Origin: Octopus vulgaris
Lineage: Eukaryota
DNA: 64,000 nt
Assembly: GCA_951406725.2 (NCBI GenBank)
Contig: OX597821.1
Span: 7,192,001-7,256,000, forward strand
Reading direction: 5' to 3'
Part shown: positions 11,876-44,998 of the stretch, piece after piece
Numbering within the stretch: position 1 is the stretch's first letter
How the letters are laid out: each line of letters begins with the position of its first letter
Position numbers and translations under genes: made by a program
The notes under the pieces: model-generated
Database searches by the model: none
What the model was told of the DNA's origin: nothing
Seen by the model: only the letters and a program-made list of their open reading frames with translations

Positions 11876-12213
11876 AACACACACACACACATATACATTC
11901 GGCCAATATCCCCAGCCATAAACACAACCGAGATCAGTGAATAAGTATTATATAAAAAATAAAGACATATATATATATAATAATAATATTAGGGAATAAA
12001 TCCAAACTTACAGGGAAAAATTAGATTTAGGATTAAATCCAATTTTATAGTAAAATATTATATTATATTAAATTAGAGATAAAACCACTATTAGGCAAAT
12101 CAAACAGTGAAAAACATAAGCCAATACATAATATTAATTTTAAAATATATATATATGTATATTTTTATATTTATATATTATTTTGTTTATTAATTAATAA
12201 ATTTTTTTTTTAA

Positions 12214-12611
12214 TCTCTTTATATATAAAGCTGAAGTTGTCTGTGTGTGGCGGCTTTAGTAGCTTTCAACTAACACTATCTCCTCCGAGACCCTGCGGCG
12301 CAAGTTGATCAAAATTGAGAGTATGATAGAAGAAGGCTTGCTCTTCCTTCTGTAGAAGAAAAAATTCCAATCGTACCATGTTAAGACAAAAAATTATTTA
12401 CATCAAAAAGGTGCTTCTTTTCTATGAAAATCCCTATTTTTTACGATTTTTTTAGTGTTGTGTCGCCATTTTTCGGTGTATTTGAACCAGAAAAATGTTC
12501 ACTTAAAGAGAATAACATGCTACATAATGCAAAATTTTTACTTTTCAAAAATTCCAATTCTAAAGGGTCAAAAAGAAAACAAACCCGAGCAATGCCGGGC
12601 CAAACTTCTAG
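12214..12611 (+). mobile_element. Non-autonomous Helitron
   Basis: A|TC 5' end, subterminal hairpin cccgagcaatgccggg 12584-12599, CTAG|T 3' end, no TSD. Confidence 0.85.
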
Positions 12612-12660
12612 TTTTATATAAATATGAAAAGTATTAAAAGTTTAATAAAAGATAAAGAGT

Positions 12661-12760
12661 AAAACACTACGATCGTTTCATGGCTGTACCAATTCGAATA
12701 ACAATAATTTAAATTCAGTTAATAATTCGAGTCATGGTTACAGTCAATCTTCAGGTTAAT
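12661..12760 (-). ncRNA. Type I hammerhead ribozyme with long stem II
   Basis: CTGAAGA 12754-12748; tgactgtaacca/tggtacagcca stem II extended by tcgaat/attcga; GAAAC-GATC-GTA 12679-12668; stem I weak. Confidence 0.65.
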
Positions 12761-12999
12761 TGAAATATTTTTAAAATAATCAGAAATATTTAAACAATAT
12801 TTTTAAGATATAAATAATATAATAATTTTACTTATAATAAACTCTATTATCAAACTAGAAACTTAAAACTTAATAATTATGATTATATCAAAATCGATTA
12901 TAATGTTAAATATTCATTTTAATTTTTAAAGTTAGAAACCCACCGATAATCTAATGTCAGTAATAGTCTCTATCTAATTACATAAATATTAAAAAAAAA

Positions 13000-13209
13000 A
13001 ATTAAGATCTGTATGTCGGAATAATCCTGGCCTGTGGAATTTGTAACGTCCGACAGGACTGTTTCTAATTTTTTCATATTTTTTCCTGCAATTGCCCATT
13101 TGATGTTGTGTTCATTGGCAACCCGACTAAGTTCTTCTATAACAAATTTGCCAGTGAAACCACTCGCTCCAAAAATCACAATATCAAACTCATTGTCTTT
13201 CGCTGCCAT
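13000..13209 (-). pseudogene. SCCPDH: 5' fragment (70 codons) of saccharopine dehydrogenase-like oxidoreductase, probably mRNA-derived
   Basis: MAAKDNEFDIVIFGASGFTGKFVIEELSRVANEHNIKWAIAGKNMKKLETVLSDVTNSTGQDYSDIQILI carries the Rossmann GASGFTG and WAIAG motifs of SCCPDH. Homology stops at a T run with no GT donor. Confidence 0.85.
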
Positions 13210-13279
13210 TTTCGACACAAAACAACACAACAAATATATATAAATATCTGTTATTATACTGGTTTAGCAACAGCCCTGC

Positions 13280-13357
<78 letters not shown>

Positions 13358-13380
13358 TACATGTATGTATATTTTGCACA

Positions 13381-14186
13381 CGAGGGTGTGCTGAAAAGCT
13401 CCTGACTTTCAGAGTATCGCAAATGGCCTGGTAGGAGGCCCAACTTTCTGATTTCTTCTACAGGGCTTCGAAAAACTGAAGGATCGCTGCAATAAGTGTA
13501 TGAATCTGAGAGAAGAATGTGTTGAATAAAATCATAATTAACTGAGAGGAGTGTATGAGCCGCACACAAGTGTACGAATGGTTCAGACGTTTCAAAGATG
13601 GCCGTAAAAATGTCGATATTGACGAACGTTCTGAGAGACCCACAACCAGCAGAACAAAGAAAAACATCTCAGATGTGCGTGCAACAGGGAGTGGAAATCG
13701 TCGAATTACTATCCGTGAGTTATCAGACGATGTACAGATTAGTTACGGTTCAGTTCAGTCCATCATCACTGAAGATTTGGGTATGAGACGCGTGTTTGAG
13801 AACTTTGTGCCAAAACTGCTTTCAGCTGACCAAAAAAACCCGGGTTTCAGTTGCACAAGATCTCCTTGATTGTGTCGAGAACGATGAAATCTTTTTGAAA
13901 ACTTTGCGTAGGCCTCTCACCAGGTATCACCAAGCTCTTGGCAAAATTTGATGTAGATTCTCTGCTCAACTTTCTCTGTCATTTTCAATGTGGCGATCAC
14001 ACGCTACACACCTTCCTTCCAAGCACTGCTGTAAACAGTGGAAGTAAGCTAGAACGCTAAAAATTAGTGCGCATGCGCAGCAGAGTTCAAGGTCATTCTG
14101 CGCCAAGCAGCTTTACTTTGCGTACTTTACCTTCGTTACTATGGTAACCATAGTAACGAGTCCAAATACTTATTGATCAGACCACG
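13381..14186 (+). mobile_element. Chimeric non-autonomous mariner element
   Basis: MSRTQVYEWFRRFKDGR..ERP..RRITIREL..LGMRRV..FVPKLL transposase N-terminus; the two ends resemble different mariner TIRs. Confidence 0.8.
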
Positions 14187-29180: not shown

Positions 29181-30470
29181 CGAGGGACGTTCAATAAGTA
29201 ATGCCTCTGACCCACTTGCAGTTGTTTGATCTAGCTGAAATTTGGATGTGCAATCATTTATATCTCTATAGAGTAAGTGGCAAATTACAGCTCTGAATTA
29301 ATTGTGGTTTCTTATTTACAGGTGTTTGAACCGAGTCAAGTGTGAAATGGAGCCTGTTGAGTGCCGAGCAGTGATCCGGTTTTTGTATTTGAAAGGACGC
29401 ACACCACGGGAGACTTTTGATGAAATGAAAGTAACTTATGGTGATGATGCCCCATCATATGACCTTGTAAAACGCTGGCATCGTGAATTCAAACATGGTC
29501 GGAACTCTGTGGAAACAGCTCCCAGATCTGGTCGCCCCCTTCTACCATTGATGAGGCATCTGTCCGTCAAGTTGAGGCTGCCATTTTGGAAGATCGACGC
29601 ATAATTATTCGCCAAATAGCCCATGAGGTCAAGATTAGTACCGGGTCTGTGGAAACTATCATTCATGACCATTTGCATATGCAAAAGGTGTCTGCCAGAT
29701 GGATTCCCAGGTTGCTCACGCCTTTCCAGAAGCAAGAACGCGTCGAGTGCTCGAGGGTGAATTTGGAGATGTGCCAAGAAGATGAGTCAAAATTTTTCAA
29801 AAGACTGATTACACAGGATGAAACCTGGGTCCATCACGATGATCCAGAGACCAAAGCCCAGTCAATGCAGTGGAAGCACCGTGACTCACCCCCTCCAAAG
29901 AAGGCAAGGGTGCAGCCCTCCGCTGGCAAGGTCATGCTCACAGTCTTCTGGGACCAGGACGGAGTAGTGATGACAGATTTCCTGGCAAAGGGTACCACAA
30001 TTGCAGGAGCCTATTATGCTTCACTCTTGAGGAAATTAAGAGACGTTATCAAAATCAAGAGGCGGGGCAAGATCAGCAAAGGCATCCTCCTCCTGCAGAA
30101 CAACGCTCCGGTCCACAACTCGCTTGTCGCCAGATCAGAAGCACAGGCGTATGGCTATGAACTCCTCCCCATCCCTCCTACTTTCCTGACCTTGCACCCT
30201 CTGATTTTCACCTCTTCCCAATCAGGAAGTTGTTTTTGAAAGGAAAGCGTTTTCCAGATGATGCAGCCTTGATTTCTGAAGTCACGTTGAGGTTGGAGGA
30301 CCAAGCTGGGTTCTTCTACAAAAACGGTCTCCAGAACCGCATCAAACGATGGGAGAAATGCGTAACTCTGGGTGGTTCCTATGTAGAAAAAGACTAATAA
30401 CTGTGCCAAGTTTCATTGCTCTACTGCTATGGGAAGTGGGTCAGGGGCATTACTTATTGAACGCCCCTCG
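29181..30470 (+). mobile_element. Full-length (1290 bp) mariner with frameshifted transposase (about 29347-30398)
   Basis: TIR cgaggg(a/g)cgttcaataagtaatgcc; WIPRLL, ITQDETW, NNAP (second D lost), PDLAPSDF; two frameshifts; inserted in a TA array. Confidence 0.95.
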
Positions 30471-43652: not shown

Positions 43653-44522
43653 CTACCTCTCTGGCGGACAGCTTACTCTTTCACTTCTCTTTCTCTTTTT
43701 GACTACCATGAATTCCTCCTCTGTTCTTGTCTCATTTACCTCGACGTGTACCACTTGGACCACACTCTCCTGCACCTCAGTCTGTTCCATCTGTTGTTCC
43801 TTTTCTCTCTGGAGGCACCACGCCTTCATGTGGCCTTTCTCTCCACATGAGCAGCATATAGGAGGCCTACCCTCCACCACCACTCTCAGCCTTGTATCCT
43901 CGGGCAGAACTATTTCTTCTGCAATTCTGTTGAGATCTTCTACACTCACTTGTATGGCCATCTTTATGCCATACCCCCAATAATTCAACTTTTTGGTTCT
44001 CGTTGCCTTGTGTATCTTGGCATACCCCTCCATGTTAAACATTATGGCTGCATTCAGCCATGTTTCCTTTATCTCTGGAGGTACTTTGCCAACTCTCACC
44101 CTGGCATTACGCTTGCCACAGTACGTCGGCAAAAGTACCCATTCTTCCGTTCTTATTGCTTCTGTGCAGGGCTTAATCGCTTCGTCCTCCGTCGCGAAAC
44201 GCACTTCCACTGTGCCATACCTCCTTCCACGTGTGATGAACGTGGTCAGCTTCTTGATTTCCTTCAAGCATTCCTCAATAACTTCAATAGGTGCTATTTC
44301 TATCTTCCTTGTTGATACCCTCAGAGTCTTAACAATTACCGTTCTTTTATTTGCATTGCTTGTGAGTCTCAACGTGTTTCCCTCCCTTTCCAGTAGTTTC
44401 TCACATTCTTTCATCTTCTTCGGCTCAACTTTTACTTCGCGAACCTCCAAAGCCTCAACCTCTATTATTCCTCTATCAGTTGCTACCGCATAACTGTGGC
44501 CTCCTACTGGCACTTTCTCCAT
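43653..44522 (-). CDS. L1/Tx1-type ORF1-like protein with CCHC zinc knuckle, prematurely stopped
   Basis: VVVEGRPPICCSCGEKGHMKAWC; the E/K-rich frame continues past stops towards about 43130. Confidence 0.75.
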   Translation of the reverse strand: MEKVPVGGHSYAVATDRGIIEVEALEVREVKVEPKKMKECEKLLEREGNTLRLTSNANKRTVIVKTLRVSTRKIEIAPIEVIEECLKEIKKLTTFITRGRRYGTVEVRFATEDEAIKPCTEAIRTEEWVLLPTYCGKRNARVRVGKVPPEIKETWLNAAIMFNMEGYAKIHKATRTKKLNYWGYGIKMAIQVSVEDLNRIAEEIVLPEDTRLRVVVEGRPPICCSCGEKGHMKAWCLQREKEQQMEQTEVQESVVQVVHVEVNETRTEEEFMVVKKRKRSERVSCPPER

Positions 44523-44581
44523 CTCTCCCACAATGGGGGAAAAAAACAGCAATTCAACAATAACAGGATCAGCAATTTCAA

Positions 44582-44998
44582 CAGGCGCAGGAGTGGCTGT
44601 GTGGTAAGTAGCTTGCTAACCAGCCACATGGTTCCGGGTTCAGTCCCACTGCGTGGCACCTTGGGCGAGTGTCTTCTGCTATAGCCCCGGGCCGACCAAT
44701 GCCTTGTGAGTGGATTTGGTAAACGGAAACTGAAAGAAGCCTGTTGTATATATATTTATATATATATATGTATGTGTGTGTATGTGCTTGTATGTCTGTG
44801 TTTGTCCCCCTAGCATTGCTTGACAACCGATGCTGGTGTGTTTACGTCCCCGTCAATTAGCGGTTCGGCAAAAGAGGCCGATAGAATAAGTACTGGGCTT
44901 ACAAAGAATAAGTCCCGGGGTCGATTTGCTCGACTAAAGGCGGTGCTCCAGCATGGCCGCAGTCAAATGACTGAAACAAGTAAAAGAGTAAAAGAGTA
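44582..44998 (+). mobile_element. Full SINE B in the 5' UTR of the ORF1-only element
   Basis: as 33889. Confidence 0.9.

Follow-up and report, generated by a model that had tools for sequence, protein, structure and literature searches.

A piece of the host gene SCCPDH forms the 5' end of a Penelope-like element insertion in Octopus vulgaris

How did the beginning of a host gene come to stand at the head of a retroelement insertion? The locus that raises this question lies in a 64,000-nt stretch of Octopus vulgaris DNA (hereafter the window), where one Hydra-clade Penelope-like element (PLE) sits in a (TA)n microsatellite with 281 nt of host SCCPDH as the 5' end of the insertion. Along the minus strand the order is (TA)n, a piece of SCCPDH 5' UTR, 70 codons, a T run, an AT-rich body that contains the core words of a hammerhead and is interrupted by a 400-nt insert, and about 13 nt of TA. 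The element part of the chimera is the 3' ~620 nt of the PLE, since split by the insert. The features are as follows.

13281..13349, no strand: (TA)n array on the 5' side of the insertion, the target microsatellite.
13210..13280, minus strand: SCCPDH 5' UTR piece, 71 nt, with an 11-nt deletion (alignment to the parent and run contigs).
13000..13209, minus strand: first 70 codons of SCCPDH, from the ATG at 13209 to ...QDYSDIQILI.
13000..13010, minus strand: 11-nt microhomology common to SCCPDH and the PLE.
12991..13001, minus strand: T run of 11 T, internal to the element and a recurrent 5' end of PLE copies.
12613..12999, minus strand: 3' UTR / pseudo-LTR part of the Hydra-clade PLE.
12661..12763, minus strand: hammerhead-like motif of PLE type (core words, an extra base after A9, a long stem II and a 2-bp palindromic stem III).
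12213..12612, minus strand: 400-nt insert of a separate high-copy repeat.
11980..12212, minus strand: 3' end of the PLE; near 12143 it lacks ~75 nt between short AT-rich repeats, a deletion private to this copy.
11967..11979, no strand: short (TA)n of ~13 nt on the 3' side.

The initial annotation had given this minus-strand layout, and its order, UTR, codons, T run and body are confirmed; the 3' TA tract is just ~13 nt, however, and the T run belongs to the PLE. It was also right that only the 5' end is kept, unlike in an ordinary processed pseudogene: codons 1-70 alone are present, the T run is PLE-internal, and there is no mRNA 3' end or poly(A). A target-site duplication is unreadable in the TA array. 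The reading frame runs 9 codons into the PLE past the junction and then stops, for a total of 79 aa. A Pfam search of the SCCPDH fragment gives PF03435 at E=5e-4, which is under the curated cut-off of the family. With one copy, 79 aa and no sign of use, the fusion is a dead end as a gene.

The element belongs to a large family. The PLE body has 1972 candidate copies, and the 40 that were scored are 95-98% identical; a 27-nt hammerhead motif occurs exactly 664 times (control, 0). A full-length member, L067, contains a pseudo-LTR, an ORF with a reverse transcriptase (RT) plus, at the C terminus, a GIY-YIG endonuclease, and a 2.5-kb 3' UTR with the same end as the window copy, which bears out the proposed Penelope-type origin. 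The pseudo-LTR of L067 is its 3' end repeated before the ORF, and inverted pieces are found in L055, L076 and others. Over 375 nt the window PLE has 8 mismatches to its nearest copy and 20 to L067. The RT and endonuclease are assigned by motifs, a Pfam search of two PLE ORF pieces having returned no match. In the L067 ORF, YRDD is followed by VVY...YIGST. Across 12 loci, QSDKT (DKG changed to DKT) and RIKWK (K for R next to W) each occur in 7, CYLCS[NH]E in 11 and CRH in 7, the latter two being CxxC and CxH motifs. A CxCX5C linker of the CTCRDKTKC/CTCRDKSKC type is present in L173, L176, L178, L181, L182 and L183.

Judged by their sequence, the DKT, RIKWK, CxCX5C, CxxC and CxH motifs and the (TA)n targets would fit the Hydra clade of PMC8557442. 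Members of that clade are described there as having a C-terminal GIY-YIG, DKT, a CxCX5C linker, CxxC, CxH, (TA)n targets and a hammerhead in the pLTR, and the octopus PLE is like them in all of these. It is unlike the published Hydra-clade families, which are mostly <3 kb (PMC8557442), in its length of ~5 kb, its 2.5-kb 3' UTR, RIKWK in place of RWK and a non-canonical hammerhead.

Other properties of the family were observed along the way. Many related PLE copies have stop-free frames of >800 aa, so related families may be recently active. A short non-autonomous subfamily accounts for ~25 of 92 copies (e.g. L080, L102 and L156) and has a fixed 5' boundary, ~1010 nt 5' of the hammerhead GAAA, that is joined directly to the hammerhead region; its stem II is 24 nt shorter. 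Longer PLE copies, too, often have their 5' end or an inversion at this boundary. An intronless caspase ORF of 295 aa (L068:3344-4228; PF00656, E=6e-62) lies ~4.5 kb from the PLE copy closest to that of the window.

The donor of the host piece is a gene on another chromosome. The parent at G000:C4:157790064-157791359 (L002:1582-2877) is a single uninterrupted ORF of 431 codons, and in an exact look-up it carries the Octopus vulgaris name saccharopine dehydrogenase-like oxidoreductase. Of 88 candidates in a DNA search, 40 were scored and yielded 41 matches, in which the SCCPDH part is covered only by the window and by G000:C4:157789983-157790273; a protein search returned the same two places (2 matches among 6 candidates). 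The donor is on C4 and the insertion is on C8, so the two are unlinked. SCCPDH is multi-exon in other animals. No other full SCCPDH gene was found in this genome, and the C4 copy, with its intronless ORF, may itself be an old retrogene that replaced its parent. A second transcript-like contig (L031:6811-7500) follows the SCCPDH contig by ~400 nt, across a microsatellite, and is either a long 3' UTR or a neighbouring gene.

Two arguments for an RNA source that were made from the sequence of the fragment do not hold. Homology past STG had been taken as intron loss; with an intronless parent ORF there was no exon junction to lose, and the continuation beyond STG is no sign of such a loss and no direct demonstration of an RNA origin. 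The absence of a parental intron was one half of a contrary scenario in the initial annotation. The other half, co-duplication of flanking DNA, is false, and the interpretation is not refuted: SCCPDH homology starts sharply at 13280 and stops at 13000, and upstream or promoter DNA was not copied. The fragment had also been described as copied to the cap. In three runs that are guessed to be RNA, contigs span the C4 gene gap-free and leave most of the upstream DNA uncovered. Three of these RNA-type contigs start 126, 60 and 39 nt 5' of the first base of the fragment, and a fourth has 260 letters beyond it. The contigs cannot fix the transcription start, yet they do show sequence 5' of the fragment start. 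As far as they can tell, the fragment is 5'-truncated and falls short of the cap.

The fragment differs from the G000 parent by 6 coding substitutions. The gene in run X13 has two of them as well (13114 and 13048), which places these changes on the parent side. The remaining 4 are absent from the gene in X13 or X17 and are taken as fragment-specific. An 11-nt deletion in the UTR is likewise private to the fragment, being absent in the parent gene and in runs X13 and X17. The protein cluster at 90% identity holds three full-length proteins only, all with the parent residues K6 and R43.

With its 70 open codons and a start context, the window piece could be read as the real first exon of an SCCPDH gene. 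There is next to no chance of this, since the complete gene is on C4, the protein search finds no downstream exons at the window, RNA-type contigs carry the C4 alleles and the frame stops after 79 aa. Among the matches listed, the RNA-type runs have parent alleles only, which is silent on expression of the chimera, and none of the listed holders of the chimera is recorded as RNA.

The junction itself is more informative. As a PLE-internal feature, the T run has further element sequence on its 5' side in most copies; of 88 distinct ones, in a set that a pattern search had enriched for truncations, 68 count as intact there. It doubles as a recurrent 5' end. By reading, the 13 genome-wide matches to a (TA)n-T-run pattern are 9 copies that start at the T run, 1 that does so after an inverted piece and 3 intact variants. 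L013 inverts at the T run, and L021 and L027 carry fillers there. Among 92 copies sampled in order of position, the T run is not prominent as a 5' end.

The last 11 nt of the SCCPDH piece are also present in the PLE, ~57 nt 5' of the T run, with the exact 11-mer in 48 of 70 copies. In mock junctions over 1572 parent mRNA positions, a match of at least 11 nt arises 2 times against the element's 110 nt just upstream of the T run, 4 times against 210 or 510 nt, 10 times against the 3' UTR and 18 times against the whole element. Between 11-mer and T run the window copy lacks the ~57-nt spacer, which none of the 11 closest copies has lost (10 keep the spacer and 1 does not reach it). An exact-pattern search for other copies of the chimeric junction, or for a source PLE with the 57-nt deletion, found the window only. 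L101 has a deletion and L197 a duplication within the same spacer; taken with the private ~75-nt deletion of the window copy, these changes make slips here plausible. A 10-nt match between the SCCPDH UTR and the frequent 5' boundary of the PLE was considered as a second switch point and rejected: the fragment runs 10 nt past it on SCCPDH, and the variant is in only some of the closest copies.

It is probable that the PLE RT switched template from its own RNA onto SCCPDH mRNA. The initial annotation had proposed such a switch, and it is still the best reading, on evidence other than the intron and cap supports, which fail: the 11-mer, the stall site, the sense orientation, the unlinked donor and the missing upstream flank. 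The SCCPDH piece has the same sense as the PLE and lies wholly inside the part that is covered by RNA-type contigs. The ages of the two halves agree, at 4 private substitutions in 281 nt for the fragment and 8 in 375 nt between the PLE half and its nearest copy, so their private divergence would be compatible with one event. Synthesis would have started by target priming at the PLE 3' end in (TA)n, and the RT may have stalled at the U run ~620 nt into the PLE RNA. The jump to SCCPDH mRNA could have been direct, with 2-3 nt of pairing, or could have followed a ~57-nt slip on the PLE RNA to the 11-mer and then been guided by homology. The missing ~57-nt spacer weighs against a homology-guided jump, since an extra slip or deletion is needed. 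The RT would then have copied 281 nt of SCCPDH mRNA and stopped before the mRNA 5' end, and the cDNA end would have been joined to the TA array. The Helitron-like insertion into the PLE part presumably came later.

The two RNAs might instead have been joined before reverse transcription, by splicing of SCCPDH to an acceptor in the PLE or by ligation at a ribozyme-cut end. Joining at the RNA level is known for L1 chimeras (10.1101/2025.02.02.635956); for this locus it is very improbable. The parent reads on as GCGGAT where a GT donor would stand, in agreement with the initial annotation, and the retained PLE part is not preceded by AG; splice joining is disfavoured on these grounds. The junction also lies ~330 nt from the predicted hammerhead cut at 12668.

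Other copies of the family show what else can stand at a PLE 5' end. An automated and noisy sort of 138 sampled copies gives 40 with TA, 21 with TA after an inverted piece, 44 with other sequence, 24 with other sequence after an inverted piece and 9 at the locus edge; TA is thus at the 5' boundary in 61 of the 138 under this noisy classification. The 5' inverted pieces are a sign of template changes. Four other copies share the layout of the window, namely L077, L076, L061 and L006. The LINE and SINE labels on such filler sequences are presumptive. L077 (L185:7354-9301) consists of (TA)19, a 1.6-kb sense LINE piece without its 3' end, a 15-nt stutter, the PLE 3' part and (TA)n; the LINE has no donor in the flanks fetched and many 97% copies on other chromosomes. 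L076 (L186) has (TA)n, an inverted PLE end, a 1.6-kb sense LINE with its 3' end and then PLE; the LINE sits exactly between the inverted and the direct PLE pieces, and no target duplication was seen. The sense LINE pieces of these two copies, with no donor within the flanks fetched, also speak for template switching. They could also result from a separate insertion and a deletion.

In L061 (L218), (TA)n is followed by a 186-nt filler that finds its best match (98%) in inverted orientation at a distance of 4.5 kb; the filler of L006 (L070), 83 nt long, matches (98%) DNA 1.25 kb upstream in direct orientation. These near-identical donors mean that DNA can serve as template. Among 14 candidate fillers, a near-identical local donor was found in 1 (L061), L006 coming from a separate comparison; L009, L021, L096 and L143 had diverged repeats only (77-87%), and the remainder had none. 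The SCCPDH piece may then have been captured from DNA, if a stalled cDNA end, or a break in a PLE copy, used the 11-nt match to invade the genomic gene and was then lengthened by the RT or through repair synthesis. An intronless parent would give the same sequence from DNA as from mRNA, and microhomology is a signature of repair too. Capture from DNA is a rival to be taken seriously, though an unlikely one here: both DNA-templated cases are local while the SCCPDH donor is on another chromosome, and the piece lies in sense within the transcribed part. The three non-local cases (SCCPDH, L076 and L077) are all in sense, which is a weak argument with a chance of 1 in 8.

A third possibility is a series of separate events, in which a longer SCCPDH retrocopy and a PLE came to lie side by side in the TA array, after which a deletion mediated by microhomology took away the 3' part of SCCPDH and the 5' part of the PLE. 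A joint on an 11-nt match is what such deletions typically leave, ~75 nt between short repeats have also gone from the window copy, and the LINE in L077 and L076 is from a family that itself ends in TA arrays. A run contig bears on this history as well. In X20, a 51-nt contig spans the TA-SCCPDH joint, and a 1488-nt contig combines three fragment-specific differences with two parent alleles and runs 1207 letters beyond the 3' junction on the parent 3' side, as a longer copy would; it is probably an assembly mosaic, less probably such a copy. The X20 contigs suggest that the locus is not an assembly artefact, and X20 may be related to the source; X17 has a parent contig only and X15 has no coverage of the SCCPDH part, although absence from contigs is no proof. 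Such a history requires three independent events, and no remnant of the SCCPDH 3' part was found anywhere among the 6 candidates of the protein search. The 90% cluster contains just the three full-length proteins with K6 and R43, the joint falls where PLE copies are known to stop at their 5' end, and the halves are similar in age. The sequential history is accordingly judged quite improbable.

The hammerhead and the insert contribute little to the explanation. The claim of a same-strand hammerhead stands for its core words (CUGAAGA at 12754-12748 and GAAA at 12679-12676) and its palindromic stem III, with a GUA site at 12668; the extra base after A9, the long stem II and a pseudo-LTR position in sense complete the PLE-type marks of the minimal hammerheads in PMC4209133, which served for comparison. 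It falls short in other respects. The usual G10.1-C11.1 pair is missing, with U opposite U (or U-A and an extra U) in nearly all of 71 copies. At the gathering score the window has no Rfam match, and within 11900-13400 no hammerhead family reaches E<=10. The hammerhead is not the minimum-energy fold (z -0.47; forced -8.3 against free -16.8 kcal/mol). Given the distance of ~330 nt between the predicted cut and the junction, the candidate hammerhead is a passenger of the pseudo-LTR and not the cause of the fusion. In another PLE, cleavage is reported as dispensable for insertion in vitro (PMC11167929).

The 400-nt insert has 2838 candidate copies, the best other copy at 93%. By its ends it is presumably Helitron/HINE-like. 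A search for a PLE source that already bore the insert found only the window, and the insertion junction is single-copy. Gene-fragment capture by a Helitron was rejected: both ends of the insert are 390 nt from the SCCPDH piece, and the insert lies inside the PLE and does not enclose the fragment.

Comparable chimeras are known from other systems. Law and Burns (10.1101/2025.02.02.635956) describe 5' mRNA/LINE-1 chimeric insertions, with 17 human cases of which 15 are in sense. As in the window, these, together with the U6/L1 chimeras described there, place sense host RNA, mostly from the transcript start, 5' of a retroelement 3' part in one insertion. In the L1 cases the element is mostly near full length and six joints are on splice donors, whereas the octopus chimera has a short PLE 3' piece, no splice site and, at its joint, a U run and 11 matching nt. 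Tan et al. 2016 (PMC5131818) report LTR-mediated retroposition by microsimilarity, with a median of 6 bp at the joint, which they read as template switches. Those retrocopies are likewise partial, 3'-truncated mRNA copies with short shared sequence at the joint; they differ in having two switches, an LTR element on both sides and possible re-transposition, while the window has one switch, host DNA directly 5' and a single copy.

Within PLEs, Arkhipova et al. 2013 (PMC3846280) describe Penelope-mediated mobilisation of host genes in the rotifer Adineta vaga. Moved host sequence, spacers of captured DNA, proposed template jumps and microhomology at a 5' joint are common ground. The rotifer cases involve whole intron-containing genes between pLTRs, with a TSD (PMC3846280), whereas in the window a 5' mRNA-region fragment takes the place of the PLE 5' part and there is no upstream pLTR. 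In the literature covered, mostly non-subscription main texts whose supplements may bear on it, no report of a PLE chimera with a 5' mRNA fragment was found. Since analogous chimeras are established for L1 and LTR elements, the PLE form is a moderate surprise.

The 5' completion of PLE insertions is a matter for which PMC8557442 calls for an in vitro system. PMC11167929 treats cleavage and initiation, and the word "switch" is absent from its main text. A tentative generalisation, possible but short of being expected, is that the Hydra-clade Penelope RT routinely ends insertions by jumping from defined stall sites to RNA in trans (host mRNA or LINE RNA) or to nearby DNA in cis, leaving foreign 5' fillers on a few percent of its insertions. 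If so, the SCCPDH locus would be its protein-coding case, one that displays in the genome a step of PLE integration not otherwise characterised, and 5' gene fragments could be duplicated by this route with no poly(A) end. The "route for gene capture" that the initial annotation had suggested is general in a weak sense at most: upstream of 125 other copies there is no second host coding capture, Pfam on 150 of 265 open frames giving 1 match, to a transposase, in a screen of low sensitivity that missed a 232-aa LINE RT piece and in which the SCCPDH piece itself scores 5e-4. With its stall site named, its donor known and 11 nt of matching sequence, the junction supplies exact substrates for a switching assay, and the PLE family offers further fillers to catalogue.

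Other repeats lie near the insertion and elsewhere in the window. The insertion is flanked by pieces at 14190-13380 and 11820-11680 that are presumed to be Mariner-like. A transposase-like ORF is located at 29487-30236, and a LINE-like ORF is on the minus strand at 43656-44615.
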